Shown piece by piece: positions 2,161-28,758 of a stretch of 32,000 nucleotides of DNA. A program made the position numbers and the translations under genes. Position 1 is the stretch's first letter; every line of letters begins with the position of its first letter. The DNA is from Ferroglobus placidus DSM 10642 (GTDB lineage: Archaea > Halobacteriota > Archaeoglobi > Archaeoglobales > Archaeoglobaceae). The notes below the pieces were generated by a model. That model was given only the letters and a program-made list of their open reading frames with translations, was not told the origin of the DNA and searched no databases. The stretch covers positions 1,380,001 to 1,412,000 of the forward strand of contig NC_013849.1 of NCBI RefSeq assembly GCF_000025505.1, read 5' to 3'.

Positions 2161-3158
2161 AAACTTTCGTAAATTTTTGAGACTTCTTCAGCAACTCTCT
2201 CCCAGCTGTAACTTTCTGTCACTTTCCTTCCCCTTCTCCCGAGTTTCCTCACGGTCTTTGAATCCAATTTTTTTATTATTTCCCTCAATTCTTCCACGCT
2301 CTCAAAGGTGTATCCCGCTTTTTTCGCGATCTCCCTTACTCCGGGAGTGTTGTAAGCTATAACCGGAGTTCCGGAAGCCATAGCTTCGAGTAAAACTATT
2401 CCAAATGCTTCCAACCTCGTTTTTGATGGCAGAACGAGGCATTTAGCTTTTTTCATAAGCTCTCGCACTTTTTCGTATCCAACTTTTCCGAGAAATTTCG
2501 CCTTTACTTTTTTCTCTCTTGCAAGTTTTTCGAAGTACTCTCTATCCTCACCATCTCCGGCAACCACGAGTTCTTCTTCGGTTTTTTCGAGGGCTTCTAT
2601 GAGGTAATTTAGCCCTTTATACTTCACGAGCCTTCCGACGTACAGCACGAAGTTCTTTTTCTCGGAGCAGAATTCGAAAGTTTCAAAGCTAACACCGTTC
2701 GGTATAAATTCGAGCTTCTCTTCGTAATCTCTAAGAATTTTTGAAGTTCTCGCATAATCTGGAGTTGTTGCGACGATAACTTCTGCTCTGTCGAGAACTT
2801 TTCTCGTAACTTTTTCGTTTATTTCCTCTAATTTTTTTGCAGCGAATCTCGGAATTCTTACGCCAAAAACCTCGTCGGGAATTTCAACATCGTTGTGGTA
2901 AGTAACGACGAATTTGTCCTCGCTGGAGTAGATGTAAGCAAAAAAAGGGCTTGGGACGTGAGCGTGATATATTTCAGCGTTGCACTTCTTTTTTTTCAAG
3001 GGTATTGGGGAATAGGGGATCGGAAGAGAGGGAGTTGTTGAGGAGGATATTATCTCCACCTCGTAAAACTTCGAAAGGGCTTTGGAAAGGTTTTCAACGT
3101 GGATCTCTATTCCTCCGATGTGGGGAAAAGAGTAGGGGGTGATTTGAGCGACTTTCAT
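2157..3158 (-). CDS. family 4 (GT-B fold) glycosyltransferase
   Basis: 333 aa. N-terminus MKVAQITPYSFPHIGGIE and C-terminal EAFGIVLLEAMASGTPVIA region are typical of GT4/GT1-type enzymes. 4-nt overlaps with both neighbours. Confidence 0.75.
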   Translation of the reverse strand: MKVAQITPYSFPHIGGIEIHVENLSKALSKFYEVEIISSSTTPSLPIPYSPIPLKKKKCNAEIYHAHVPSPFFAYIYSSEDKFVVTYHNDVEIPDEVFGVRIPRFAAKKLEEINEKVTRKVLDRAEVIVATTPDYARTSKILRDYEEKLEFIPNGVSFETFEFCSEKKNFVLYVGRLVKYKGLNYLIEALEKTEEELVVAGDGEDREYFEKLAREKKVKAKFLGKVGYEKVRELMKKAKCLVLPSKTRLEAFGIVLLEAMASGTPVIAYNTPGVREIAKKAGYTFESVEELREIIKKLDSKTVRKLGRRGRKVTESYSWERVAEEVSKIYESL

Positions 3159-3757
3159 ATTATCCCTTCGAGCTCCAGAATTTTTTTAGCCCACACGAGT
3201 TTTTTCCCCTTTACTCCTTCGGCTTTAAACTCGAACCCGTGCAGGAGAATTTTTCTCGCTCCGAACTCCTTGGCTATTATTGCTGCTCTGTCTCCGTCCG
3301 TAAATCCTCCGAAGTTGTAAACTCTGTCGAAAGGCTCTGCTTGTGTCGTTGCAACGAAGGAGTTCAGCTCTGGAACTATCTCTTTTATCAGTTCTACGTT
3401 GTCTCCGTGGGCGTGGATTACGAGAACGCATCCTTTCTCCTCCACTTTTTTCAGAATCTCAGCACCTTCTTCGAGGTCAGTAACATGCACGTCTGGAACT
3501 CTCGATGTAATTTTCATCCATTTAATCAGCGACTTTCCGGCGGTGATTATCGTTTGAGACTCTATCGGCTTTTCGACGGCTCCTCCAACAACAACGACCT
3601 CTTTCCCCTCGATTTTTTCCCTCAAGACTTCTTTGTCGAGGAGCTTGCCATTTCCCATCTCTTTCAGAATTATCGCAGCTCTCCTGTCCTCGTCGATTGA
3701 GTAGCCAAAATCTCTTGCGATTTCTATGTATATTTTGAACCACTCTTCAAGCTTCAT
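3155..3757 (-). CDS. mptE: 6-hydroxymethylpterin diphosphokinase MptE-like protein (DUF115 family)
   Basis: 200 aa. Motifs VTDLEEG, IHAHGDN, TTQ and GGFTDGDRA match my memory of the small archaeal MptE/DUF115 family. Fits an organism using methanopterin-type cofactors. Family call is from recall, not a search. Confidence 0.55.
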   Translation of the reverse strand: MKLEEWFKIYIEIARDFGYSIDEDRRAAIILKEMGNGKLLDKEVLREKIEGKEVVVVGGAVEKPIESQTIITAGKSLIKWMKITSRVPDVHVTDLEEGAEILKKVEEKGCVLVIHAHGDNVELIKEIVPELNSFVATTQAEPFDRVYNFGGFTDGDRAAIIAKEFGARKILLHGFEFKAEGVKGKKLVWAKKILELEGII

Positions 3758-6700
3758 TTAGTCTCTTTATCCCTATCTTCGCCTTCTCTCCTTCTATGTC
3801 CCACTCTTTCACGTATCCTTCAGCCTTTCCGAAGATTAGCTCCTTCGCTCTGGTTTCAGTTTTTATGTAGTCTTCGAAACCTCTAACGAGCTCTTCGTCG
3901 AATTCGAGAGTAACGATTATGAACTCCTCGACGTTTAAATCGAGCTCTTTCCTCATTTCCTGAATTCTCCTCACGAGCTCTCTTGCGTAGGCTTCTCTCT
4001 TCAGCTCTTCGTCCATTTCGGTGTAAACGTAAACGACTCCCCTGGAGAATTCCTCGTAGCTGTAATTTTCTGGCACTTTGAACTCGAACTCGAGGTAGTC
4101 TCTGTCTATTCTCTCTCCATCGAATTCGACGTAGCCTCTTTCGTAAATCTGCCTCATTTCCTCCTTACTCAGCGAGTTAAGGTAATTTATGAAGTCCTTC
4201 ATCTTCTCCCTTAGCTTCGCTCCGAGCTTTTTGAAGTTCGGTTTAACAACAACCTCCTTTTCGAACTCTTTCACGAACTCTATCTCCTTCACGTTACTCT
4301 GAGTGAGAATTATCTCTTTTAGCCTCTCTACTTTCACGTCTCCCTCTACTATCAGCTTTCTCAGAGGCCATCTGAGTTTTATTCCGGCTTTTTGTCTTGC
4401 CGCATAGCTCGCCTCAACTATCTCTCTCGCCAGATCCATCTCTTTTTCGAGCTCCTCGTCGATCCACTTTTCATCAGCTTCCGGATACATCTCCATAAAA
4501 ATCGACTCTTCTCCCTCTCTGAACTTCTTCGTGAAGTTCTGATAAACGTATTCCGCTATGAAGGGAGCGAAAGGGGAGATAATTCTCGTGACTTTATCTA
4601 TAACCCGAAACATTGTAGCGTAAGCGGCTATCTTGCTTGGACTATCTTTTTCCTCCCAGACCCTCCTCCTTATGAGCTGTATGTACCACCTGCTGAAATC
4701 TTCCACGACGAAATCGTAGAATCTCTTCACAACTCTATGCAAATTGTAGTTTTCCATAGCCTCGTTAGCAAGCTTGCAAAAGCTTTCGAGTCTCGAAAGA
4801 ATCCATTTGTCCTCTATTCTGAGCTCGCAATCCTCTGGCGAGACTTCTCTGAATTTGTCGAGTTCCATGTACGTGTACGCGAATCTAACAGCGTTCCAGA
4901 AAATGTTCAAAAGTCTCAAGAAGTTCTCCGCCTCTCCCCAGCTGAACTTCAGGTCTTCCCATAATGCTGAGGAGAGAACGTAAAGTCTGAAAGCATCGAC
5001 GCCGATTCTGTCTATAACTTCCTCCGGCTCGACGACGTTTCCTAAGCTTTTGCTCATCTTTCTTCCCTGCTCATCAAGAGTGAAGCCGTGCATGAGAACA
5101 GTCTTGTAAGGGGCTTTTCCGAAAGCGATGATGCTTGCTCCAAGTTGAGAGTAGAACCAGCCCCTTGTCTGATCGTGTCCTTCCGTTATGAAGTCCGCTG
5201 GCCAGAGCTTTTTGAACTCCTCTTCTTTCAGCGGGTATTCGAGAGTTCCCCAGCTTGCAACTCCGCTGTCGAACCAGACGTCGAAAACGTCGCTTATTCT
5301 CTTCATCTTTCCCCCGCAATCACATTCGAATGTTACCTCGTCTATTTTCGGTCGGTGCAGATCTAAGTCGTCCTTCCAGCCTACCTCGTTTATGCTTCCG
5401 ACAACTTTCATTTTTCCGCACTTCTCGCATATCCACACTGGAATCGGAATTCCCCAGTACCTCTGCCTGCTTATGCACCAGTCTTTGGCGTTGCTAACCC
5501 AGTCTTTGAATCGAGAAGCTCCAGCCCACTCGGGAATCCACCTTACCTTGTCTATTTCCCTCAGCATCTCTTCCTTAAGCTCGCTGACCTTCAAAAACCA
5601 CTGCTCTGTAGCTCTGTATATTATCGGAGTTTTGCACCTCCAGCAGTGACCATATCTGTGAACTATAGTTTCTTCAGCGAGCAAGAGCCCTTTGTTTCTC
5701 AAATCTTCTATTATCACTTTGTTAGCTTCTCTCACATTAAGTCCGGCGTACTTCCCAGCCTCTTCGGTGAAAACACCCTTGTCGTCGACCGGATTGAAAA
5801 CCTCGAGACCGTGCTGAACTCCAAGCTCGTAGTCTTCCAATCCGTGTCCCGGGGCTATGTGAACGCAGCCGGTGTTTTCTGCCGTTACGAACTCAGCCAT
5901 GTAAACCTTATGCACGAACTTCTTCTGAATCGGAACCTCCTCAGCTAACGGGTGCTCGTACTCTAAGCCTACGAGATCTTCACCGAGCTTAGTTTCCACA
6001 ATTTCCCAAAGCTGGTAGCCGCCTTTCTTCAGAACGTCTTCAGCAAGCTCCTTAGCGAGGATAAGATACTCAAGCTTATCATTTTTAACGGCTTTTATGA
6101 TCGCGTACTCCAAAGACGGGTGAACAGCAACTGCCATGTTCGCCGGAAGAGTCCAGGGTGTCGTGGTCCATATTACTATGTAAGTCGCTTTCTCTCCTTT
6201 TACGGGGAATTTAACGTATATGGAAGGGTCTTTCCTTTCCGCATATTCTACTTCCGCGTCAGCCAGAGCAGTTTCGCACCTCGGACACCAGTTCACGACC
6301 ATCTTCTTCTTCTCAAGCAAACCTTTCTCGTGAGCTTTCTTGACCGTCCACCAAGCAGAGTTTATGTACTCTGCTTTTATCGTCATGTATGGGTTTTCCC
6401 AGTCCATCCAAACGCCGAGAGCTTTGAATTGCTCCGTCATAGCTTCTTTGTTCTTCAAAGCGTAATCCATGCACATCTTCACGAACTTGTCAATCCCGAA
6501 CTCTTCTATCTCCTTCTTTTCCTTTATTCCGAGCTCTTGCTCCACCTTCACTTCTATCGGAAGCCCGTGCATGTCCCATCCCGGGCGATCGGTTACCTTG
6601 AACCCTTTCATTCTCTTGTAACGCAGGACCGTGTCTTTTATCACCTTATTCCAGGCTGTACCGAGGTGAATTCTTCCAGTAGTATAAGGAGGACCGTCAA

Positions 6701-6840: not shown

Positions 6841-7938
6841 TTAAAATAGTTTATTCAAAGTGTATCTACTTTCTCCAAGTCCGAGTTCTTCGGCGTAGCT
6901 TATCAGTCTTTTTGGAGACGTCCATCCCCAGTACTTTTCCTTTAACAAAGCTTTTTCGAAGTTTTTCTCGCTCTCATAAGCGTCGAGGCTCGCTTTATCC
7001 ACAGACACTATGTCTTTGGAAGCGAAAATTCCTACGTCCGGAATCACCGGAACTCCGCTGTAAGGATGGCAGTCGCAGTGGGGAGTGACGTCGAGGACGA
7101 AGTTCAAATATGCGAAGTTTTTCCTTCCGACGGTATCTATAACTGCCTTGGCAGCCTCGACGATCCTCTCTGCTATTTCATCTCCAACGAGCCAGGGAGC
7201 TATTACTACAGCTTTCGCCTCGCAAACCTCTCCGCAGCCGGCACATTTAACGCATTTTTCGAGATTTATCTCGTAGTTTTCTATCGCATCCACTGGACAA
7301 ATTTCGAGGCACTTGTCGCATTTTGTGCACTTCTCTCTATCTATCCTCGGAGGATTTGCCACGTGGATGTCGTATTTGGTCGTTTTAGTAACGCATCCAA
7401 CTCCGATGGTCTTCAAACTCCCTCCAACTCCGGCTCTGAAATGGAGCTTGAAATGTGTTGCGACAACGACAAAATCGGCTTCAGCTATTGCTTTAGCCAC
7501 GAAAACTTCCTTGAGGTGTTTGCCGTTAGCTTTAACCTTTACTCCGTCCAAGCCGATTAGACCGTCGGCTATTATTATCGGAGCTGCCAGGGTTTGCTGG
7601 GTGTAGCCGTTTTCTTCGGCTATCATCAACCTTCCCGTGGCAAAGCTTCTGTCTTTAGTCATTCCCAAGCCGGTAGTTTCGGTTACAAACGGTTTTCCGC
7701 CTCTTTCCTTGACTTTCTCGGCAATCTTTCTAAGAAAAACTGATCTGAGTGTTTTCGTCGTGCCGAAATCTCCGAAGTGGGTTTTTATCGCCACCAAGTC
7801 ACCGGAAGATATTCCGTCGAGGATTCCACTCTCATCTATCAGCTTGCCAAGCTTGTAAACGAGACTCTGCTCCGGCTGATACCACTTTTCCAACTCAGTA
7901 ACCGGCGCTTCTGCGGAAGCGAAGAAAACTTCGCTCAT
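6841..7938 (-). CDS. DUF362-domain iron-sulfur protein with inserted 2x[4Fe-4S] ferredoxin domain
   Basis: 365 aa. Two CxxCxxCxxxCP-type motifs (CTKCDKCLEICP, CVKCAGCGEVCE) embedded in a DUF362-like scaffold (AIKTHFG..., TPHCDCH). First gene of the long minus-strand string. Confidence 0.7.
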   Translation of the reverse strand: MSEVFFASAEAPVTELEKWYQPEQSLVYKLGKLIDESGILDGISSGDLVAIKTHFGDFGTTKTLRSVFLRKIAEKVKERGGKPFVTETTGLGMTKDRSFATGRLMIAEENGYTQQTLAAPIIIADGLIGLDGVKVKANGKHLKEVFVAKAIAEADFVVVATHFKLHFRAGVGGSLKTIGVGCVTKTTKYDIHVANPPRIDREKCTKCDKCLEICPVDAIENYEINLEKCVKCAGCGEVCEAKAVVIAPWLVGDEIAERIVEAAKAVIDTVGRKNFAYLNFVLDVTPHCDCHPYSGVPVIPDVGIFASKDIVSVDKASLDAYESEKNFEKALLKEKYWGWTSPKRLISYAEELGLGESRYTLNKLF

Positions 7939-8013
7939 GAGCTAAGGGTAAATTTTTGAGCCTAAAAATGTTTGTTTTGGGGAACATTTATCTATTTTCG
8001 AGAAGAGTGTAGA

Positions 8014-8181
8014 ATGATGTACATCCTCTGTAGGGTTTGCGGAAACGATACTTTCAGAATTACCGTGGAACTGGTTGCGGAATGCACGAGCTGCGGAGCG
8101 AAGTTTAGCTTGGGGAAGCCGATAGACAAGCTTCCGAAACCTGATGACATCGAACCTTTCAAATTTCTAAAAGGTTTTTAG
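8014..8181 (+). CDS. small zinc-ribbon protein (hypothetical)
   Basis: 55 aa from ATG 8014 (MMYILCRVCGNDTF...CTSCGAKF). Two CxxC pairs form a 4-Cys ribbon. Ends 21 nt before rtcA. The tracked TTG start at 7972 adds an implausible N-terminus. Confidence 0.4.
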   Translation: MMYILCRVCGNDTFRITVELVAECTSCGAKFSLGKPIDKLPKPDDIEPFKFLKGF

Positions 8182-8202
8182 TCGCAAAGATCACTTGCGA
8201 AC

Positions 8203-9210
8203 ATGATCAAAATCGACGGAAGCTACGGCGAAGGAGGAGGGCAGATTTTAAGAACTGCGATAGCTCTTTCATGCTTAACCGGAGAGGCTGTTGAAATTTA
8301 CAACATCCGAGCTAAGAGACCCAAACCCGGGTTGATGGCTCAGCACCTAAAAGGAATAGAGGCGGCAAAGAGAATTAGCGATGCCGAAGTTGAGGGGTTG
8401 AGAATTGGGTCTACGCGAGTTGTTTTCAAACCGAGGAGTTTGAAAGGTGGGAATTTTAGGATCGATATCGGCACGGCTGGAAGCGTTACCTTAATTCTTC
8501 AGACAGTTCTCCTCCCTTCTTTAGCCGCAGACGGAGAAACGACTCTTGAAATTAGGGGAGGAACTGACGTTAACTGGAGTCCTACGGCGGATTACTTCAT
8601 GAACGTCACTCTCCCAGCTCTCAGAGAGCTTGGCGTGGAGGCTGAATTTGAGCTGATAAAGCGAGGATATTATCCGAAGGGTGGAGGGGAAGTGAGGGTA
8701 AAAGTTACTCCCTCTAAGCTCTTCGGGAAAACTTTCGAAAAGAAGGATTGCGATAAAGTTCTCGGAGTCTCTCACGCTTCGAATTTGCCCGAGCACGTGC
8801 CGAAAAGACAGGCTGAAGCTGCAAAAAGAGTTTTGAGAGAAGCCGGTTTCGATGCAGAGATAAAAATCGAAGTTAGAAGAGAGTTCTCAACTGGAAGCGG
8901 AATAACTCTTTGGTGCGGATATAAGGGCGGGTCTTCTCTCGGAGAAAAGGGAAAAAGAGCGGAGATCGTTGGGGAGGAGGCTGCTAAAGAGATTTTAAGC
9001 GAGTTATCGACGGACTTCGCCTTCGATAAGCATTTAGCTGACCAAGTTATGGTTTTCGCTGCTGTGGCGAAGGGAGAAACCTTCTACACCACTTCTCAGA
9101 TAACCATGCATGCCGTTAGCAACAAGTACGTTATAGAGAAGTTTTTTGGAGAATGCATCAAATTTGAAGGGAACTCTGTGAGAATTTTCGGAAACGATAT
9201 CCTCTCTTGA
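8203..9210 (+). CDS. rtcA: RNA 3'-terminal phosphate cyclase
   Basis: 335 aa. N-terminus MIKIDGSYGEGGGQILRTAIALS and overall length are characteristic of RtcA. Confidence 0.9.
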   Translation: MIKIDGSYGEGGGQILRTAIALSCLTGEAVEIYNIRAKRPKPGLMAQHLKGIEAAKRISDAEVEGLRIGSTRVVFKPRSLKGGNFRIDIGTAGSVTLILQTVLLPSLAADGETTLEIRGGTDVNWSPTADYFMNVTLPALRELGVEAEFELIKRGYYPKGGGEVRVKVTPSKLFGKTFEKKDCDKVLGVSHASNLPEHVPKRQAEAAKRVLREAGFDAEIKIEVRREFSTGSGITLWCGYKGGSSLGEKGKRAEIVGEEAAKEILSELSTDFAFDKHLADQVMVFAAVAKGETFYTTSQITMHAVSNKYVIEKFFGECIKFEGNSVRIFGNDILS

Positions 9211-10425: not shown

Positions 10426-11078
10426 GGTATCTTATAAGGTTCGACGTTCACCAGAGGTTGCAACACCTATTGCTGCTAACGAGCTTCGTAATTTTGGCTG
10501 TAACGGGAATACCTCTCCTTTACCGCTACACGGAATGGGGTATGGCTTGGATTAACGCTATGGGAGGAGTAGAGGAGGTTAGAGGTTGGCACAGACTGGC
10601 GAGCTTCATTATGATTGCAGCTGGAATTTACCACGTAATCTGGGCGTTGATAAAGAAACCGAAAGGAATGATTCCGACGAAGAAAGATGTGAGCGACTTC
10701 ATAGCTGACTTGAAGTTCGTTTTCGGAAAAAGCAGAGAGCTTCCAAAGTACGGAAAATTCACCTATGTTCAGAAATTCGAGTACTGGGGTGCGTTCTGGG
10801 GAATGGTGGTTATGATATCCACTGGATTGATCCTAAGCTATCCGGACTACTTCTCACCCTCTGGAGAGCTGTATGCGGCTGTTAGGGTTGCTCACTGGGA
10901 GGAGGCTTTTCTTGCTATAGTGTTCATTGCCACGTGGCACATGTACTTCAGCCACCTCAGAAGGAGATTCTTCCCGTTCAACAAGGTTATTTTCACCGGA
11001 AAAATGGAGCTTGAAAAGGCTGAGAAGGAACATCCCCTCTGGGTTGAGGAGGTGGTTAAGCGTGGAAGTGGTAATTGA
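10422..11078 (+). CDS. dihaem b-type cytochrome membrane subunit (FdnI/HyaC-like)
   Basis: 218 aa with 4-5 TM helices. His15, His57, His158 and His173 are spaced like the four haem ligands of FdnI-type cytochrome b. ATGA overlap with the small-subunit stop. Confidence 0.7.
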   Translation: MRYLIRFDVHQRLQHLLLLTSFVILAVTGIPLLYRYTEWGMAWINAMGGVEEVRGWHRLASFIMIAAGIYHVIWALIKKPKGMIPTKKDVSDFIADLKFVFGKSRELPKYGKFTYVQKFEYWGAFWGMVVMISTGLILSYPDYFSPSGELYAAVRVAHWEEAFLAIVFIATWHMYFSHLRRRFFPFNKVIFTGKMELEKAEKEHPLWVEEVVKRGSGN

Positions 11079-12627
11079 TCCCGTTACCAGAATCGAAGGT
11101 CATCACGGGGTTAGGCTGAAGGTAGAGGATGGTGTGGTTAAAGATGCTCATTCTCTTGCGACGATGTTCAGGGGATTTGAAAGGATAGTTATAGGAAGAG
11201 ATCCCAAAGATGCGCCGATATTGCTTCAGAGAATATGTGGTGTCTGCCACAACGATCACAGGCTCGCGAGTCTCTTTGCCATTGAAAACGCTGCTAAGCT
11301 TACCAACGAGTGGGGTGCAGGATTGCCAGAACCTGCGGTTTTGCTGAGAAATGCAATAGCAGCACTGCAGTTCGTCTTCGACCATCCAGTGTGGGCTTAC
11401 GCTTTAACAGGTCCCGACTACTGCGACGCGATACACAAAACAGGGCTTGTCAGGTTCGACCCCATAGTTGGGAGGGGAGTTAAGGAAGCTGTTTTAGCCC
11501 AGAAAAGGCTTCACCAGGCGATGACATATATAGGAGGAAAGGTACCCCACATAATGACCCCGATTCCCGGAGGAGTTAGCCTAGAAATTGACGCAAACAT
11601 CATTTCCAAGCTTATAAGCATAGTTCTCGATGTTAAGAAATGGGCCCTTGGAGTTGGACTCGGAAAAACTGCGCTGGAACACGCAAGAGATGTTGCTGGT
11701 TATGTGATTGACGACGTGAGCAAAAAGCTTGAGAAGGGTGTTGTTGAACCTCCCAACGACCCGGAAGTCGGAAAAGGGCTCTACGACCTCGTCTCTCTGA
11801 TCCTTGTCATGGCAAATCTGGGGCTTAAGGATATGGGAGAAAGAACTCCAACCATGCTGGCTTACGGATTTCTGGCTGATCCAAACGGAGAGCTCTTCTT
11901 CCCCTCTGGCTTTTTCAACGGAAAGGAGCTTGAGAAGTTCGATTACAGGAACATAGGAGAGGACGTGAAGTACTCCTATTATGATGACGAAGCTGGAGGA
12001 AGCTATGTTGGAGAGGAGGATACAAGAAAGCTAATTCCCAAGTACGGCAAGGCTGGAGCCTACACGTGGGCCAAAGCTCCGAGATACAAAGGAATGCCTG
12101 CTGAGGTCGGACCTCTCGCAAGAATGGTGGCAAAAGGATACAGGGACGGATGGGAGGTTGGAGACCCTCTCGATTTGAGGAAGAATCTCGCTGGAGGAAG
12201 AACAGCTTCAAATGCGCTGGCGAGAAACATAGCGAGGATTCAGGAAGAGCTTGTGCTTATCGATTACCTCGAAAACCTTTTGCTCGAGCTGAAAGACTAC
12301 GCTGGAAAGAAAGCTTACGTCAAATACGAGATAAACGACGGAGATGGAGTTGGTTTGAGAGAGGCTCCGAGAGGTGCACTGGGACACTGGGTGAAGATTA
12401 GGGGAGGAAAAATAGAGAACTATCAGGTTATAGCTCCAACTACATGGAACGTCTCTCCGAGAGATTCGAAGGATCAGATGGGTCCGCTCGAAGAAGCGTT
12501 AATAGGAACACCCATAAGCGAAAGCGATCAGTGGAACGTGATAAGAGTTATCCACAGCTTCGACCTCTGTTTAGCTTGCACCGTGCACGTTTACAGCGAG
12601 AAAAGCAGCTGGACGATTAAAATTTAA
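11062..12627 (+). CDS. [NiFe] hydrogenase large subunit
   Basis: N-terminal VIDPVTRIEGH and RICGVCHNDH (RxCGxCxxxH) motifs. C-terminal DLCLACTVH (DPCxxCxxH-type) followed by a 12-aa tail typical of the protease-cleaved extension. Start placed at GTG 11062, 7 nt after GGAGGTG (11048-11054). The tracked 566-aa ORF start (10927) lies inside the cytochrome b gene. Confidence 0.9.
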   Translation: MEVVIDPVTRIEGHHGVRLKVEDGVVKDAHSLATMFRGFERIVIGRDPKDAPILLQRICGVCHNDHRLASLFAIENAAKLTNEWGAGLPEPAVLLRNAIAALQFVFDHPVWAYALTGPDYCDAIHKTGLVRFDPIVGRGVKEAVLAQKRLHQAMTYIGGKVPHIMTPIPGGVSLEIDANIISKLISIVLDVKKWALGVGLGKTALEHARDVAGYVIDDVSKKLEKGVVEPPNDPEVGKGLYDLVSLILVMANLGLKDMGERTPTMLAYGFLADPNGELFFPSGFFNGKELEKFDYRNIGEDVKYSYYDDEAGGSYVGEEDTRKLIPKYGKAGAYTWAKAPRYKGMPAEVGPLARMVAKGYRDGWEVGDPLDLRKNLAGGRTASNALARNIARIQEELVLIDYLENLLLELKDYAGKKAYVKYEINDGDGVGLREAPRGALGHWVKIRGGKIENYQVIAPTTWNVSPRDSKDQMGPLEEALIGTPISESDQWNVIRVIHSFDLCLACTVHVYSEKSSWTIKI

Positions 12628-16061: not shown

Positions 16062-17208
16062 TGCAGAGGAAGTGTCCGAGTTTTTCCCTCTTCGCTTTCA
16101 AATACCTCAGATTTTCCTCGCTTGGCTCGATTTCTATCGGCTCTCTAACGACTTCAAAACCGTAGCTCTTAAGCTCCTCTATTTTTTCCGGATTGTTCGT
16201 CATCAGCCTGACTTTTTTTACTCCGAGATCGAGTAAAATTTGCGCGGCAATTCCGTAACTTCTCATATCCGGCGGGAATCCGAGTTCGAGGTTCGCTTCG
16301 ACGGTGTCTTTCCCTTCATCCTGAAGTTTGTAAGCCATGAGCTTGTTTATCAACCCTATCCCTCTCCCCTCGTGACCTTTCATGTAGATCAAAACACCTT
16401 TATTTTCCGAATCAATCTTTTTCAAAGCTTTCTCAAGCTGTTCTCCGCAGTCACATCTTAAAGAGTGAAAGACGTCTCCAGTTAGGCATTCTGAGTGTAT
16501 CCTTACAACGCACTCTTCGAGATTTTCTCCTCTTACTAAAGCGACGACCTCTCCTATCGGAGTTTCGTAACCAATCGCTTTAAACTCTCCGTAGAACTTC
16601 GTCGGAAGTCTCGTCTCCACGACTCTCTTAACAGCCTTTTCCTCTCTAAGCCTCTTCGAGATGAGTTCTTCCATCGAAAAAGCTTCGAAGTTGTTCTCTT
16701 CGGCAAACTTCAAAGCGTAGCTCTTGTCGGCAAACTCCCCTTCTTGGTTGAGCAGAAAAGCGTAAACGGATATCGGAGAGTAGCCTTTCATCTTCGCAAC
16801 GTCTATGGCAGCTTCCCCAAACCCCGGTCTTTCGAGGACACCGTTTTCCTTCACCTCTTCGATGAAAATTTTCCCGGGGAACTTCGCATCGTATACGTCG
16901 CCGGAGAGAATTTTTCTTATAGCTCTCAGTCTGCCGGAAGCGGTTAGATCTCCGTTGAAATCGACGGAGATGAGGTTTTTTCCTTCAAATTTAAAGGAAT
17001 TGAGCCCGAGACTTTCTATTATCTTCCAAGGCATCGCTATTCTTATCTCGTCACCGTTTTTCATCAGAACGTTGATCTTCTCTCTATCTATTTCCTCGGC
17101 TGGAAAGCAAATCGCCGCTCTGTCGTCTTTGTAGATGACGTAACCCATATCATTTACTCCCAGGTGAGGTATATAATTTTTGAGATTTTTCTCAAAAATG
17201 TTAATCAA
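16051..17208 (-). CDS. ribA: GTP cyclohydrolase II fused to a degenerate DHBP-synthase-like N-terminal domain (RibBA-like)
   Basis: 385 aa. The C-terminal half carries the RibA Zn motif (RIHSECLTGDVFHSLRCDCGEQL) and HEGRGIGL. The N-terminal ~200 aa aligns to RibB (GVLERPGFGEAAIDVAKMKG...) but lacks its acidic catalytic motif. TTG start 4 nt after GGAGG, overlapping the upstream gene by 8 nt. Confidence 0.85.
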   Translation of the reverse strand: MINIFEKNLKNYIPHLGVNDMGYVIYKDDRAAICFPAEEIDREKINVLMKNGDEIRIAMPWKIIESLGLNSFKFEGKNLISVDFNGDLTASGRLRAIRKILSGDVYDAKFPGKIFIEEVKENGVLERPGFGEAAIDVAKMKGYSPISVYAFLLNQEGEFADKSYALKFAEENNFEAFSMEELISKRLREEKAVKRVVETRLPTKFYGEFKAIGYETPIGEVVALVRGENLEECVVRIHSECLTGDVFHSLRCDCGEQLEKALKKIDSENKGVLIYMKGHEGRGIGLINKLMAYKLQDEGKDTVEANLELGFPPDMRSYGIAAQILLDLGVKKVRLMTNNPEKIEELKSYGFEVVREPIEIEPSEENLRYLKAKREKLGHFLCIND

Positions 17209-17386
17209 TTTTCCTCCTTTTCAATTCTTCTTCTCCTTTAATCATCTCCTCATACTCTCCTTCAGTCATTTCGAGCACGTAGCTTCCCACGTACCCGCAT
17301 CTCTTGCAATAGTACTTCCCGGTGTAACCGCCGGCGTCGTATTCAATTTCCGTGGAGTTACAAACTGGACAGACCAGAATTTTCAT
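17201..17386 (-). CDS. small zinc-ribbon protein (hypothetical)
   Basis: 61 aa with ATG start. CPVC...CKRC 4-Cys ribbon followed by an acidic/basic helical tail. Translationally coupled to ribA by an 8-nt overlap. Confidence 0.5.
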   Translation of the reverse strand: MKILVCPVCNSTEIEYDAGGYTGKYYCKRCGYVGSYVLEMTEGEYEEMIKGEEELKRRKID

Positions 17387-17531
17387 AACCGTAATTTGGT
17401 AGCGAAGCTAATATACTTTGTGACGATGTTATCTCTTGCCAGTTGAATGTTACCAATTAACACCAAAATGATTTCAAATAAATAAAAAGATTTAAATATG
17501 TAACGATTAAATGTTGATGAGGTGATAGAAA

Positions 17532-17594
17532 ATGAGGGTGAAGAAAGTTGAGGGGAGAAAAAGGAGGATCTGCAAGTGTGCATCTACTTGCTGA
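17532..17594 (+). CDS. candidate 20-aa Cys-rich micro-ORF (MRVKKVEGRKRRICKCASTC); possible rSAM substrate peptide
   Basis: ATG 17532 lies 5 nt after GAGGTGAT (17519-17526), which is 8-nt perfect complementarity to the 16S 3' end encoded in this window. First ORF after AT-rich TATA-like boxes (17477-17498). Not in the ORF track because it is under 60 aa. Could be a chance ORF. Confidence 0.2.
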   Translation: MRVKKVEGRKRRICKCASTC

Positions 17595-17766
17595 AAACCC
17601 GGAGATAATTTGTCGCGTGTGTCAGTTTTACAAACCGGGAAAAGAAGTGCTTGAGTGTGGAGCTTTTAAAATTCTGAAATTTTTTGTGGAAAGCGGGAGG
17701 TTGAGCGTTGAGGAAATTGAGGAAGCGGCTAAAGTTGTCGAAAAGACTTCTTCTGAGGAGGTTTGA
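17578..17766 (+). CDS. small CxxC-containing protein, 62 aa (hypothetical; possible wHTH-like C-terminal half)
   Basis: In-frame GTG 17578 lies 10 nt after AGGAGG (17562-17567). Sequence VHLLAENPEIICRVCQFYKPGKEVLECGAFKILKFFVESGRLSVEEIEEAAKVVEKTSSEEV. The tracked TTG 17548 start has no SD. Overlaps the micro-ORF at its 5' end and the rSAM ORF at its 3' end. Confidence 0.4.
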   Translation: MHLLAENPEIICRVCQFYKPGKEVLECGAFKILKFFVESGRLSVEEIEEAAKVVEKTSSEEV

Positions 17767-18811
17767 GAAAGCTTACGCTTACAACGCAAAAACTGACTAT
17801 ATCTACGAACTGGACGAGGAGGCTTTAAGCTTTTTAACATCCTTAGACGGAAGGGAAGTCGAGATAGAGGAAGAACTTTACGAATACTTAAAAGAAGAGG
17901 GCTTCTTCGGAAATTCGTTACCGGATTTTAAAGAGCAAAAGGAGTTTCCGAGCTTGAGATATTTGCTCGTTCACGTCACTTACAACTGCAACCTGAAATG
18001 CGAACACTGCTACGTTGAAAGGAAAAACGTTTTCATGAGCCGAGAAGTTTTCGAAGCTTTAGCCAGAAACTTCTACGAAATGGGAGGATTGAAACTGATC
18101 GTAACGGGGGGAGAACCTCTAACTCATCCTGAAATATTTGATTTCCTTAGAGAGGCTCGAAGGTATCCTTACAGAATTGTTCTCCTGACAAACGGATTGC
18201 TTATCGACGAAAGAATCGCAAGAAAGCTTTCAAAATTTGTTGATGAGGTTCAAATCAGCTTGGACGGGTTGGAAGGGCATAAAATGCTGAGAGGCGTTGA
18301 TTACCGAGTTGTTGTGGAGAAAATAAAACTTTTGAAAGAATTTGTCGACGTTTCCGTCGCTACAATGATAACCAAGTACAATTTAGAAGAATTTGAGAAG
18401 ATGAAAACTCTAATGGAATCTCTCGACGTTAAAAGCTGGAACATCGACTTTCCGAGTTGCAGCGAGGAGGTAGTTCCAGATTTCGATAAAGCTTCTCTAA
18501 TCTCCCTTGGCTTTGGCGAAGCTCACGAGGCTGAGGAAGGATACTCGTGCGGAACTCACCTCGCTTCGGTCACTCCGAAAGGAGAGGTGACGAAGTGCGG
18601 ATTTTTTGAGGATGCTGTTGGAGACGTCTTTAATCTGGAAGAGGCTTGGAGTGAGCTTAGGAAGAAGTACATATGGAGACTTTCCGAGCTGAAGTGTGAG
18701 TGCGACTTCGTGGAGAAATGCAGGGGAGGTTGCAGATACAGAGCTTTACACTACTCCGGCGACATCTTCGGGGAAGATCCGGTGATGTGTGCAATTTTCA
18801 AAGCCCGGTAA
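17708..18811 (+). CDS. radical SAM / SPASM-domain enzyme with RRE-like N-terminal region (peptide-maturase type)
   Basis: 367 aa. CNLKCEHC (CX3CX2C) at residues 94-101. SPASM pattern C-X10-G-X4-C, C-X-C-X5-C-X3-C, plus a final Cys. No ATG near the 5' end. TTG 17708 lies 6 nt after GGAGGT (17696-17701); the alternative is TTG 17735. Confidence 0.85.
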   Translation: MRKLRKRLKLSKRLLLRRFEKAYAYNAKTDYIYELDEEALSFLTSLDGREVEIEEELYEYLKEEGFFGNSLPDFKEQKEFPSLRYLLVHVTYNCNLKCEHCYVERKNVFMSREVFEALARNFYEMGGLKLIVTGGEPLTHPEIFDFLREARRYPYRIVLLTNGLLIDERIARKLSKFVDEVQISLDGLEGHKMLRGVDYRVVVEKIKLLKEFVDVSVATMITKYNLEEFEKMKTLMESLDVKSWNIDFPSCSEEVVPDFDKASLISLGFGEAHEAEEGYSCGTHLASVTPKGEVTKCGFFEDAVGDVFNLEEAWSELRKKYIWRLSELKCECDFVEKCRGGCRYRALHYSGDIFGEDPVMCAIFKAR

Positions 18812-18823
18812 TTCTGTTTTTTG

Positions 18824-19351
18824 CTATGTAGATAATCTCGTCACCTTCCATTTTCCCGCTCTTTTAAGAACATCTTCATCGGTTATGTCTCCTCTAATAA
18901 AAACGAGGTCTTTGTGCTCTACTGGAACGCTTTCGACGTCTGCGACAACTGCAATTTCTACTCCTTCCTTCAGAAGCTCTTTAACAGCTACATATATCAC
19001 GCCGTTCCATCCTAGAGCGATGACGTGGTTTTCCATAAAGACCCTCGGTTTTCTTTTTAAACCTTTTTCGATCATAATTTCAGCCACGGAAGCAAGTAAA
19101 ACTCCAAGGACTCCTATTCCGCTTATCATAACAAAAATTGATAAAATTTTCCCGATTTCAGTTTCTGGCGTTATGTCACCATAACCTACTGTTGTGGTGG
19201 TCGTTATAACCCAGTAGAAGGAGTCGAAAAGGGAAACTCCTTCTACTTTGTGAAACAAGAAAGAGGAAAACGTCCAGAGGGAGAAAATGTAAAAAGCTGA
19301 GTAAGTAAAAACCCTTCTTTCCTTTAGAACTGCTGTTAGCTTTTTAGGATT
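18824..19351 (-). pseudogene. decayed MthK-like K+ channel (TM1-pore-TM2 + truncated RCK/TrkA-N domain)
   Basis: The open frame contains TM1 (VFTYSAFYIFSLWTFSSFLF), the selectivity filter TVGYGD (19175-19192), TM2, and only about 65 aa of an RCK Rossmann domain (HVIALGWNGV...GDITDEDVLKRAG). There is no ATG/GTG/TTG upstream of TM1 in the frame that opens after TAA 19352-19354. The only start (TTG 19258) would delete TM1. Confidence 0.5.
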
Positions 19352-19364
19352 TTAATCAGAACAA

Positions 19365-20456
19365 TCATATCTTTTTCAACTCTTCAACGAACTCGTCTAT
19401 CATTTCCTTCGTTACGTGAGGCATCACGACCATCCTTATAGCTTTCGGCTCTCTTATCGTTGAAATGACCCATCCTCTCTTGTACAGCTCCTCCTTTATT
19501 TTTTCGGCTCTCTCCGTTTTGAAAGCCACGACGTTCATAATCGGCTCAATTACCGGCTCGTAGCCGATTTCTCCCATTTTCTCGACAAGATAATTTGTGT
19601 TTTCCATGCACTTTTTGACTATTCTCTTCATCCCTTCGAAGCCGAGTCCTTTCAGCACAGCGTAGCTCGAAGCAACACCTGTTCCGGGGCGAGTTCCGGT
19701 TAGAGTGAATTGGTATTTCGTCGTTAAGTAGGGAGTTTCCACTTCAAGCAGCTTCAGGAAACTCTCGTCTCTGAAGAGAATTCCCCCAGCCGGAATCGTA
19801 GCCATTCCCATCTTGTGGGGATCTAAAGTTATGGAAGTTACTCCTTCCAGTTCGAAGTCGAAGGGAATCTTTCTTTCAAGGAACGGCAAAACGAGTCCTC
19901 CAAAGGCTGCATCTACGTGGAGAGGGACGTCTTTTTCGATAGCTATCTTCGAAAGCTCGTCTATCGGATCAACCTGTCCAAGCTCCGTCGTTCCTGCAAT
20001 TCCAACTATCGCAACGGTGTTTTCGTCAATAGCTTTTTCAACTTCACCCACGTCGACTCTGTATTCTTCGTCCAATCCGACCCTTCTTATTTCTACAGCA
20101 AGCAGGTCTCCTATCTTTTCGAAGGAGAAGTGAGCCGATTTCGGAATTACTATGTTCGGCTTTTTAGCTCTTTTCAAATTTCTTGCAGCCCTTATTCCCT
20201 GAATGTTCGCTTCAGTGCCTCCGGAGCAAATGTAGCCGGCAGCTTTTTCGTTGTGCAAAAGCTTTCCGAGCATTTTTATTAGCTCTCTCTCGAGCTCCCA
20301 CGTTCCTACAAAAATCCCCGGATCTCCGAGGTTTGTCTCTAAAAACATTATGTGGGCTTTCACAGCCAAAGGATGCGGAACTGTGCACATGGAGCTGAGA
20401 ACCCTCTTGTAAGAGATGTCCTTGAGCCTGAAGTTGAGAAGCTCTTTAAACACCAT
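19365..20456 (-). CDS. mfnA: L-tyrosine/L-aspartate decarboxylase (methanofuran / beta-alanine biosynthesis)
   Basis: 363 aa from ATG 20456 (MVFKELLNFRLKD...). Group II PLP-decarboxylase motifs (SGGTEANI, HVDAAFGG, TLDPHKMG). The tracked 453-aa ORF extends 90 codons further upstream, antisense into mobA, which is not credible. Confidence 0.85.
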   Translation of the reverse strand: MVFKELLNFRLKDISYKRVLSSMCTVPHPLAVKAHIMFLETNLGDPGIFVGTWELERELIKMLGKLLHNEKAAGYICSGGTEANIQGIRAARNLKRAKKPNIVIPKSAHFSFEKIGDLLAVEIRRVGLDEEYRVDVGEVEKAIDENTVAIVGIAGTTELGQVDPIDELSKIAIEKDVPLHVDAAFGGLVLPFLERKIPFDFELEGVTSITLDPHKMGMATIPAGGILFRDESFLKLLEVETPYLTTKYQFTLTGTRPGTGVASSYAVLKGLGFEGMKRIVKKCMENTNYLVEKMGEIGYEPVIEPIMNVVAFKTERAEKIKEELYKRGWVISTIREPKAIRMVVMPHVTKEMIDEFVEELKKI

Positions 20457-20475
20457 GCAGAGGCATTTGGACAAG

Positions 20476-20497
20476 CTTAATATAATTTTTATTAAAG
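20476..20497. promoter_or_regulatory. bidirectional TATA-rich promoter region between mfnA and mobA
   Basis: CTTAATATAATTTTTATTAAAG fills most of the 48-bp divergent spacer (20457-20504). Geometry implies very short or absent leaders on both mRNAs. Confidence 0.4.
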
Positions 20498-20504
20498 GGC
20501 TTTT

Positions 20505-21107
20505 GTGAACGTTGCCATACTCGTCGGTGGAAAAGGCAGAAGAATGGGATACGTGGAAAAAGCTCTTCTCGAAATCTGCGGAGTGAGGATTATCGACAGG
20601 CTTTTGAGGGAATTTAAGGATGACAACGTCGTTATTGTTTGCAGGGACGAAGAGCAGAGAAAGCTGTTCGAAGGTGAGACGATCGTAGACTCTATAAAAA
20701 ACTTTGGAGCTTTGGCTGGAATTCACGCAGCTTTAAAGTATTTTGGCGAGAGAACGCTTGTTTTGGCATGCGACATGCCTTTCGCGAAAAGAAGAGTTGC
20801 CGAAAAGCTATTTGCTGAGGCTGAGAAAATCGATGCGAACGTTTTGATGCCCTACTGGAAGGAAGGTCGGTTCGAACCCCTCTTTTCAATTTATTCCCCG
20901 GAAGTTATTCCGGAGATTGAAAAAAGTTTTTCCTTTGGAGAAAAGAAAATTTTAAAACCTGTTTTCCGCTCTTCTGGAGTTTACCTCTATTCTGTCGAAT
21001 GTTTGAGGAAGCTGGACGAAAAGCTAATATCCTTTTTCAACGTCAACACTCCTCAGGAGCTTAGGAGGGCGGAAGAATTATGCTCATCGACAGATTCGGT
21101 AGAGTGA
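20505..21107 (+). CDS. mobA: molybdenum cofactor guanylyltransferase
   Basis: 200 aa with GTG start. AILVGGKGRRMG nucleotide-binding N-terminus and LVLACDMPF motif typical of MobA. Confidence 0.8.
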   Translation: MNVAILVGGKGRRMGYVEKALLEICGVRIIDRLLREFKDDNVVIVCRDEEQRKLFEGETIVDSIKNFGALAGIHAALKYFGERTLVLACDMPFAKRRVAEKLFAEAEKIDANVLMPYWKEGRFEPLFSIYSPEVIPEIEKSFSFGEKKILKPVFRSSGVYLYSVECLRKLDEKLISFFNVNTPQELRRAEELCSSTDSVE

Positions 21108-23987: not shown

Positions 23988-25498
<1,511 letters not shown>

Positions 25499-25507
25499 AC
25501 TGATGGG

Positions 25508-25542
25508 CTCTCCCGCCGGAGCCCACCTGCTGGCAAGCCCAT
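25508..25542 (+). other. 16S processing stem, 3' strand, containing the second BHB bulge
   Basis: CTCTCCCGCCGGA-GCCC-ACC-TGCTGGCAAGCCCAT is complementary to 23922-23956. 3-nt bulge ACC at 25525-25527. Confidence 0.85.
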
Positions 25543-25616
25543 GGGCTCGTAGCTCAGCCTGGTAGAGCGCCGCCTTTGCGAGGCGGAGGCCTCGGGTTCA
25601 AATCCCGACGAGTCCA
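25543..25616 (+). tRNA. tRNA-Ala (anticodon UGC), no encoded CCA
   Basis: Cloverleaf by eye: acceptor GGGCUCG/CGAGUCC with the G3:U70 Ala identity pair, D arm GCUC/GAGC, anticodon stem CCGCC/GGCGG with loop UUUGCGA, T arm UCGGG-UUCAAAU-CCCGA, discriminator A. Followed by TACT, not CCA. Confidence 0.95.
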
Positions 25617-25691
25617 TACTTGATTGTTTAATTCGTGCACCCGGCGATGGAAAAGTCGCCGGGGAAGGGTTTAGCCCCTCGTGGGTGATGA

Positions 25692-25738
25692 GACCGTGCA
25701 AAGGCGTTCCCAGGTATTTACTGGGACCAGTTAGGCTC
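25692..25738 (+). other. 23S processing stem, 5' strand, with BHB half-site
   Basis: GACCGTGCAAAGGCGTTCCCAG-GTAT-TTA-CTGGGACCAGTTAGGCTC pairs with 28712-28758: 22-bp helix, 4-bp central helix GTAT/GTAC (one G-U), 3-nt bulge TTA (25718-25720), 18-bp helix. Confidence 0.8.
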
Positions 25739-28711
<2,973 letters not shown>

Positions 28712-28758
28712 GAGCCTGACTGGTCCCAGGTACATACTGGGAACGCCTTTGCACGGTC
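28712..28758 (+). other. 23S processing stem, 3' strand, with second BHB bulge
   Basis: GAGCCTGACTGGTCCCAG-GTAC-ATA-CTGGGAACGCCTTTGCACGGTC is complementary to 25692-25738. 3-nt bulge ATA at 28734-28736. Confidence 0.8.

Follow-up and report, generated by a model that had tools for sequence, protein, structure and literature searches.

A radical SAM/SPASM enzyme paired with a small three-cysteine partner protein in Ferroglobus placidus and across archaea and bacteria

Here we examine a 32,000-nucleotide stretch of Ferroglobus placidus DSM 10642 (NC_013849.1, positions 1,380,001 to 1,412,000, forward strand; hereafter the window, whose own numbering is used throughout). It carries a gene for a radical S-adenosylmethionine (SAM) enzyme with a C-terminal SPASM domain and, directly ahead of it, a small open reading frame (ORF), Ferp_1621, whose product we call the partner. 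That Ferp_1621 and the enzyme form one functional unit is well supported, since adjacency across domains of life, overlap at the enzyme start, exclusivity of the pairing, co-variation of their arrangement and outright fusion all point in this direction. The architecture of the enzyme, in which a recognition element (RRE) for ribosomally made peptides that are modified after translation (RiPPs) precedes the radical SAM core and the SPASM domain, is known. The enzyme family, its dedicated partner family and the series of single, double and fused partners are, as far as we found, undescribed. As to the role of the partner, we tentatively favour a substrate that is recruited by the RRE and receives intramolecular cross-links, most plausibly Cys thioethers, with slightly less than even confidence.

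New peptide cross-link chemistry comes mainly from radical SAM/SPASM enzymes that carry recognition domains. To our knowledge, nearly all studied RRE-bearing cases are bacterial and tied to secreted products. The module described here is a compact two-gene system that looks intracellular and occurs in hyperthermophilic archaea, methane-oxidising Methanoperedens and many anaerobic bacteria. Literature searches returned no paper for Ferp_1621/1622, only unrelated papers for AF0577/TIGR04084, nothing specific for Methanoperedens, and none for Archaeoglobus or Desulfobacterota SPASM enzymes.

The module comprises the following features:

17491..17498, + strand: TATA-box-like archaeal element TTTAAATA, about 50 nt upstream of the small ORF, read from the sequence
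17548..17766, + strand: partner ORF (Ferp_1621), 72 amino acids (aa), TTG start, annotated 'hypothetical protein'
17611..17658, + strand: conserved core of the partner, C22-x2-C25-x-F27-Y-K ... E36-C37
17695..17700, + strand: GGGAGG, Shine-Dalgarno-like, 7 nt before the enzyme TTG and within the 3' end of the partner ORF
17708..18811, + strand: radical SAM/SPASM enzyme gene, 367 aa from TTG 17708 in the ORF list
17741..17917, + strand: PqqD/RRE-like domain, about residues 12-70, from AlphaFold2 (AF2) secondary structure and profile alignments
17987..18010, + strand: CX3CX2C motif (C94, C98, C101), CNLKCEHC from residue 94, predicted ligands of the SAM-binding [4Fe-4S] cluster
18548..18790, + strand: SPASM domain, with C281, C297, C330, C332, C338, C342 and C361

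Pairing of the enzyme with its partner

The partner and enzyme ORFs overlap by 59 nt in different frames, and this overlap, together with the GGGAGG inside the partner ORF, suggests translational coupling. The same enzyme (100% identity) is annotated in the F. placidus record as a 358-aa 'Radical SAM domain protein'. TTTAAATA is a plausible, putative archaeal promoter for both genes as one unit; a sigma-70 promoter and terminator scan of the window was uninformative, the host being an archaeon. The enzyme start is overlapped at all four archaeal places checked, namely the window and loci L001 (50 nt), L003 (53 nt) and L005 (14 nt). At these three loci, from a Mnemosynella metagenome-assembled genome (MAG), Geoglobus acetivorans and Methanoperedens, the ORF called at the same place has 54-76 aa, and all other neighbours are different.

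A scan of a genome collection traced the enzyme family through archaea, Hydrothermarchaeales and an Asgard MAG among them, and through Nitrospirota, Desulfobacterota, Actinomycetota, Rokubacteria and Dehalococcoidia, with homologues that share 28-39% identity over the full length, N-terminal domain included. A conserved small ORF beside the orthologues was what the sequence-only reading of this locus had proposed to look for, and it is there: a motif scan finds a partner within 1.5 kb of the enzyme at 37 of 52 loci, a hidden Markov model of the partner has matches beside the enzyme in 40 sources (39 loci and the window), and the partner is present at all 11 archaeal places, again counting the window. 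The enzyme thus has what is expected of a RiPP system, a conserved small ORF linked to the maturase. When all ORFs of 53 loci were clustered against each other, only the enzyme and the partner were widely shared. One further cluster consisted of antisense ORFs inside the enzyme gene and was discarded as spurious.

Partners are proteins of roughly 50-80 aa with three Cys, typically 54 aa long, and double forms reach 110-150 aa. Five positions (C22, C25, F27, E36 and C37) are invariant in 17 diverse partners, and I21, C22, C25, F27, K29, L35, E36, C37 and A39 are invariant in 42 closer ones. The family alignment follows C-x2-C-x-F-[YF]-K ... E-C-[GA]-[AG]-[FY]-K-[IV]-L ... G-x-[LI]-[ST]-x-E-E-[IV], with a conserved stretch in the typical partner that reads LICxHCEFYKESDKDLECGAFKILKGLLxKGVITPEEI. 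The family is small and confined to places beside this radical SAM family or in fusion with it: a profile search of 1.84 billion representative proteins recovered only 135 relatives, all of 33-154 aa except four long matches, which are ankyrin, coiled-coil or histidine-kinase artefacts. Every family member is named 'hypothetical', and the partner matches no Pfam, NCBIfam (peptide models included) or PDB family. A YedF/selenium-carrier lead for the small ORF (E 0.002) was dropped, since the similarity appeared in one of 17 family members and is attributed to chance.

Archaeoglobales partners (17548-17600 in the window, and loci L001, L003 and L007) carry an extra N-terminal R-x-E-x4-S-A-S stretch that is not found in Methanoperedens or bacterial partners. 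A GGAGG (17563-17567) coincides with this stretch, and the in-frame GTG at 17578, 10 nt after it, could be the real start of the partner.

The partner also occurs in double and fused forms. Nitrospirota partners are divergently transcribed and consist of a tandem double domain of 112-143 aa, with C-x3-C...C in the first half and C-x2-C-x5-C...C in the second. In Desulfobacterota the enzyme N-terminus carries a double Cys domain as an in-frame fusion. One such fusion, used as a query, recovered more than 100 cluster representatives, each about 500 aa long (38-100% identity, full coverage), and in 96 fused sequences C11, C15 and C28 as well as C67, C70, C77 and C91 are invariant, with rigid spacings of C-x3-C-x12-C and C-x2-C-x6-C-x13-C. 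The AF2 model of one fusion (mean predicted local distance difference test, pLDDT, 91.9; predicted template modelling score, pTM, 0.87) places the invariant Cys at helix termini. The arrangement of the partner (upstream single, divergent double or fused) tracks the similarity clustering of the enzymes, and the natural fusions imply physical and functional coupling of the two polypeptides. Fused-type loci have variable gene contexts. These single, double and fused forms are also ready-made constructs for biochemistry.

At one Desulfobacterales locus (L061, CP070769), a 57-aa ORF (5620-5790) that ends in TAA encodes the first Cys domain on its own, and the second, from 5794, runs in frame into the enzyme. 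The arrangement resembles an intermediate stage from two genes to complete fusion, or else a break in sequencing or assembly.

Architecture and relatives of the enzyme

The sequence-only reading had described a radical SAM motif at residues 94-101, a complete seven-Cys SPASM domain and an RRE-like N-terminus, a combination it took as typical of peptide-modifying enzymes. The first two stand as described. Pfam Radical_SAM (PF04055) matches residues 90-233 at 81.9 bits against a cutoff of 29.5 (E 8e-23), and the C-terminal 133 residues pass the NCBIfam SPASM model TIGR04085 over its whole length (38.4 bits against 27, positions 1-93 of 93). The enzyme has cysteines at residues 94, 98, 101, 251, 281, 297, 330, 332, 338, 342 and 361. 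All ten that belong to the motifs (three plus seven) are invariant in two alignments of 17 and 64 homologues, and the CX3CX2C plus SPASM pattern is real and well beyond chance. The SPASM motif, C281-x10-G292-x4-C297 ... C330-x-C332-x5-C338-x3-C342 ... C361, is expected to hold two auxiliary [4Fe-4S] clusters. Ferroglobus carries C-x1-C where the motif expects the C-x2-C seen in Methanoperedens orthologues, and the Pfam SPASM model PF13186 gave no match at E <= 0.01.

An eighth Cys outside the radical SAM motif, residue 251 (nt 18458-18460), lies just after a conserved W-x-[ILVM]-D-x-P motif. This column is Cys in nearly all fused proteins and most Methanoperedens proteins and Thr or Ser in many Archaeoglobales; in Ferroglobus the Cys sits one residue off (P-S-C). 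It may determine whether a coordination site on auxiliary cluster I is open.

For the N-terminus, the proposed order of strands, helix and DG is borne out by the model of the enzyme, and the domain is faint in sequence models. The AF2 model, built on 64 sequences (pLDDT 94.5, pTM 0.92), shows at its N-terminus (pLDDT >95) strands at 14-18, 22-26 and 31-35, a helix at 37-44, D47-G48 and a helix at 55-63. In the whole-enzyme model and its Foldseek matches, a three-stranded sheet followed by helices thus lies N-terminal to the catalytic domain. The conserved PqqD-like region spans about 85 residues and carries the signature Y25, D30, Y33-E34-x-D36-x-E38-A39 and D47-G48. Pfam PqqD (PF05402) matches three of 28 orthologue N-termini (best E 0.0024) and is the only family matched by more than one of them. 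A profile of the same 28 N-termini, run against PDB sequences, gave PqqD 5SXY as its sole and weak match (E 0.8), falling on the signature Y-E-L-D-x-x-A-x-x-x-L-x-x-x-D-G-x-x-T. In the PDB-sequence profile search, CteB and TigE align from profile position 23, that is, from within the N-terminal domain. Two features qualify the fold assignment and its comparison between lineages: Ferroglobus has an extended segment where the RRE fold has its middle helix, and after DG Methanoperedens orthologues have a segment about nine residues longer than that of Ferroglobus and its closest relatives. We accept the domain as a predicted RRE at the level of fold, weakly visible in sequence.

Structure comparison places the enzyme among peptide maturases. 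The top Foldseek matches in the PDB are CteB (5WHY/5WGG) and SuiB (5V1Q/S/T), with E of 1e-15 to 3e-16, query-normalised TM-scores (TMq) of 0.60-0.70 and alignments that cover the entire enzyme; SkfB, anSME, TigE, ChlB and PqqE rank after them. The nearest solved folds are therefore RRE-bearing peptide maturases and not haem or cofactor enzymes, in line with the peptide-modifying architecture proposed from sequence.

No curated NCBIfam family reaches its cutoff for the enzyme, and its family is therefore unnamed. The best sub-cutoff matches are confined to the radical SAM core, residues 82-252, and include the tungsten-cofactor oxidoreductase maturase W_rSAM_matur (TIGR04317, 97.4 bits against 380), AhbD (TIGR04545, 95.1 against 500), NirJ2 (86 bits), NirJ in sixth place (TIGR04051, 79.1 against 515), WgkB and GeoRSP. 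PqqE (TIGR02109) scores 59.3 bits against 381, MftC (TIGR03962) 62.1 against 265, and the SCIFF maturase (TIGR03974) 20.4 against 425. Membership of the archaeal AF0577 family, TIGR04084, which had been put forward as a candidate, is not supported. Assuming that the model is in the library, it is absent from the best 25 of 75 NCBIfam matches (the 25th at 49 bits) and from all 23 matches of the C-terminal part, and its sister model TIGR04083 scores 19 bits against 300.

The partner as a proposed substrate, and alternatives

In the reading that we tentatively favour, the partner would be produced together with the enzyme through overlapping, coupled translation and captured by the PqqD-like N-terminal domain. 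A 5'-deoxyadenosyl radical, generated by the SAM cluster, would then remove a hydrogen atom from the partner, and the SPASM clusters would manage the substrate cysteine and the electron. The outcome would be one or more intramolecular cross-links, with Cys-derived thioethers as the most plausible kind, and the product a conserved, modified mini-protein that stays in the cell and is no secreted antibiotic, following the logic of SCIFF/CteB and QhpC/QhpD. In favour of this proposal, the closest solved enzymes are peptide maturases that form thioethers or other cross-links, the RRE has no conserved candidate ligand other than the partner, and the unexported, protease-less design recalls SCIFF/CteB and QhpC/QhpD rather than bacteriocins. 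The invariant three Cys, Glu and aromatic residue would fit thioether donors and acceptors. If the partner is a substrate, the module makes a new conserved cross-linked mini-protein, possibly a cofactor carrier.

The SCIFF/CteB system (ScfB; 5WGG/5WHY) offers the closest comparison. CteB is the top Foldseek match (E 2.8e-16) over the whole length, with only 16-17% identity, and in both systems an RRE-radical SAM-SPASM enzyme goes with a small product that contains Cys and is highly conserved, neither system showing evidence of an antimicrobial role. The likeness is one of structure and organisation only. SCIFF has six Cys in a C-terminal core, whereas the partner has three, arranged as C-x2-C-x-F...E-C and followed by two helices; the partner, unlike SCIFF, can be duplicated or fused to its enzyme; and SCIFF/CteB belongs to Clostridia, whereas the module ranges over archaea, Nitrospirota, Desulfobacterota, Actinomycetota and others. 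CteB has a Cys of its substrate as ligand to the open iron of an auxiliary cluster, and the wide spread of SCIFF across Clostridia has been taken as an argument against an antimicrobial role (PMC8326336).

QhpD cross-links Cys to Asp or Glu by thioethers within a small protein subunit that is kept in the cell (PMC8326336). Set alongside by description, the partner resembles QhpC as a conserved small protein with an invariant Cys beside invariant acidic residues, but neither linked dehydrogenase subunits nor a subtilisin-like protease occurs at module loci. The systems for pyrroloquinoline quinone (PqqE/PqqD/PqqA) and mycofactocin (MftC/MftB/MftA) share with the module a PqqD-type domain and a radical SAM/SPASM enzyme and, on the reading favoured here, a small conserved precursor and a product that stays in the cell. 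Unlike them, the module has no tailoring genes (PqqB/C/F, MftD/E/F) at its loci, and the partner lacks the E-x3-Y and C-terminal GVY motifs. SuiB (streptide) and SkfB (sporulation killing factor) have the RRE, the TIM-barrel radical SAM core and an auxiliary-cluster domain in the same order as our enzyme. Identity is 15-17% for both, TMq is 0.66-0.70 for SuiB, and SkfB is the best PDB sequence match (E 5.9e-21). SkfB has an N-terminal RRE, with a twitch domain in place of SPASM (PMC8326336). The substrates of SuiB and SkfB are secreted peptides linked to quorum sensing or sporulation, unlike the module. AhbD, NirJ (TIGR04051/4/5) and the W-maturase share a SPASM C-terminus with the enzyme and give the highest core scores, but their profiles contain no counterpart of the PqqD-like N-terminal domain.

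Several observations weigh against a substrate role. The partner terminates directly after its conserved helix, has no variable core and shows no cleavage site that could be recognised; its behaviour is that of a small folded Cys domain, unlike a leader-core precursor peptide. Tandem duplication and fusion with three plus four Cys are no less typical of a metal or Fe-S domain than of a substrate, and a substrate fused 1:1 to its enzyme would imply a single turnover. About a quarter of loci lack a partner within 6 kb, these being mainly in one Nitrospirota group, and no alternative small ORF lies within 6 kb of those partner-less Nitrospirota loci. On the enzyme side, residues 1-90 of the window enzyme give no PqqD match at E <= 1, and the top NCBIfam core scores belong to non-peptide enzymes (the W-cofactor maturase, AhbD and NirJ2). 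Finally, we infer both the role of the partner as substrate and the type of bond, and the chemistry throughout. The earlier proposal that the gene modifies a ribosomal peptide therefore keeps its conserved, linked small ORF, and the absence of leader/core anatomy and the duplicated and fused forms speak against it.

The strongest competitor, which we hold to be rather unlikely, casts the partner as an accessory metal or Fe-S domain, be it an electron donor, a cluster carrier or a structural subunit, with the true substrate encoded elsewhere. Much of what speaks against a substrate would be accounted for: the stable N-terminal fusion in more than 100 clusters and the tandem duplication, the Cys spacings fixed in all 96 fused sequences, the position of these Cys at helix ends in the fused model (pTM 0.87), the lack of leader/core anatomy and the loci where no partner is nearby. 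A C2-C3 loop that varies from 8 to 15 residues in single-domain partners would be tolerable in a metal site, and a HiPIP aligns over the partner Cys region below threshold (E 0.54). However, single-domain partners have only three invariant Cys and match no known Fe-S or zinc-finger family. The conserved RRE would be left without a linked ligand, and no other conserved small ORF is found at partner-less or fused loci that could take this place. A general reductant, moreover, needs neither tight co-evolution with one enzyme family nor restriction to it. If the partner is an Fe-S domain, SPASM enzymes have in it a dedicated auxiliary domain of a new class.

A third reading, which we regard as improbable, takes the partner as the precursor or carrier of a new protein-derived cofactor, or of a modified metal or sulfur centre, matured by its dedicated enzyme. 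It would make the partner an intracellular redox or metal-handling mini-protein of anaerobic archaea (Archaeoglobales, Methanoperedens, Hydrothermarchaeales and Asgard) and bacteria (Nitrospirota, Desulfobacterota, Actinomycetota, Dehalococcoidia and Rokubacteria), and in Desulfobacterota the enzyme and its precursor would be one self-modifying polypeptide.

Slightly less probable again is a non-peptide SPASM enzyme of the AhbC/AhbD/NirJ or W-maturase type, whose target would be a tetrapyrrole, a metallocofactor or a cluster and for which the partner would serve as scaffold or chaperone. The top core scores (W_rSAM_matur, AhbD, NirJ2 and NirJ), the MobA and MoaA genes about 2 kb downstream in the window, and the NifU, IscS, TusA, DsrE, glutaredoxin and Pyr_redox_2 genes near the module at some loci would suit such an enzyme. 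Yet those scores fall four to five times under their cutoffs and cover residues 82-252 only. The first few positions of the W-maturase, AhbD and NirJ profiles align at about residue 85-90 of the enzyme, so these profiles contain no counterpart of the 85-residue PqqD-like domain, which a non-peptide enzyme would leave unaccounted for. The best full-length structural matches, furthermore, are peptide maturases, and the molybdopterin-gene neighbourhood is not kept at other loci.

A classical secreted antimicrobial of the sactipeptide or ranthipeptide kind, with its protease and exporter encoded elsewhere, is highly improbable: the architecture is common to sactisynthases and ranthisynthases and the partner contains Cys, but the partner shows strong conservation between groups as far apart as Archaeoglobales and Desulfobacterota, none of the loci examined carries a protease, transporter or immunity gene, fused and duplicated forms exist, and the aligned partners contain no cleavage motif. 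The sequence-only reading had likewise preferred a minimal logic like that of PqqA or MftA to a bacteriocin, which agrees with a partner conserved across phyla and with no linked protease or exporter.

Genomic surroundings

Among the neighbours of the module in the window there is no protease, transporter or immunity gene, and the neighbours are of a housekeeping kind, as had been noted from the sequence; nor is a linked protease or transporter conserved at the loci examined, those of the fused type included. Upstream lie genes for endonuclease V, a CAP-domain protein, topoisomerase I and RibBA, and downstream a K+ channel fragment, an MfnA-like decarboxylase, MobA, MoaA, an aminotransferase, a kinase-like protein and the rRNA operon.

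At other loci, some neighbours recur within lineages. A cupin of about 115-125 aa, the sole recurring lineage-specific extra neighbour, lies directly downstream of the enzyme at eight loci (L013, L017, L030, L037, L040, L042, L050 and L053), seven from Desulfobacterota or other (delta)proteobacterial MAGs and one (L050) from a Nitrospiraceae, and is also present in L088 (6497-6847). The clustering further detected a rubrerythrin-like protein and a 2-oxoacid:ferredoxin oxidoreductase in Nitrospirota, NifU in four loci and a Pyr_redox_2 flavoprotein in four loci. In the Mnemosynella MAG (L001), FTR1 iron permease, TusA, DsrE, IscS and NifU are encoded upstream of the module (2495-5609), and glutaredoxin, ferredoxin-thioredoxin reductase, desulfoferrodoxin and rubrerythrin downstream (7146-8637). 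L003 has a Pyr_redox_2 flavoprotein (7122-8528), and L089 glutaredoxin and rubredoxin (1-900). The location of the module among Fe-S assembly and thiol or oxidative-stress genes in several loci is suggestive and not universal.

Further features of the window are as follows:

10927..12627, + strand: NiFe(Se) hydrogenase large subunit (Pfam NiFeSe_Hases, E 7.5e-90)
17201..17386, - strand: zinc-ribbon ORF, 61 aa, CxxC...CxxC (TFIIB-type ribbon, 28.2 bits against a cutoff of 29)
18824..19258, - strand: K+ channel remnant, 144 aa, positions 178-311 of the 403-position PRK10537 model
19365..20726, - strand: MfnA-like decarboxylase ORF, 453 aa from the first start codon
20505..21107, + strand: MobA gene, overlapping the MfnA-like ORF by about 220 nt
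23988..28715, + strand: complete archaeal rRNA operon (16S 23988-25498, spacer tRNA 25543-25616, 23S 25736-28715)

The decayed gene that the enzyme gene had been said to abut is this K+ channel remnant. It retains the pore helix with its TVGYGD filter, one transmembrane helix and the beginning of the RCK/Rossmann domain, and lacks the N-terminal transmembrane segments and the rest of the RCK; its stop codon and that of the radical SAM gene are 13 nt apart. The zinc-ribbon ORF, which overlaps the RibBA start by 8 nt, was considered as a second candidate peptide and rejected: tblastn found no homologue across the related loci, which places it outside the module. The true start of the MfnA-like ORF is probably well downstream of the first start codon, since its Pfam match starts only at residue 144. 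The hydrogenase large-subunit gene lies about 5 kb upstream of the module. The rRNA operon has a G+C content of about 65%, against about 44% in the flanking genes, the usual rRNA signature of a hyperthermophile.

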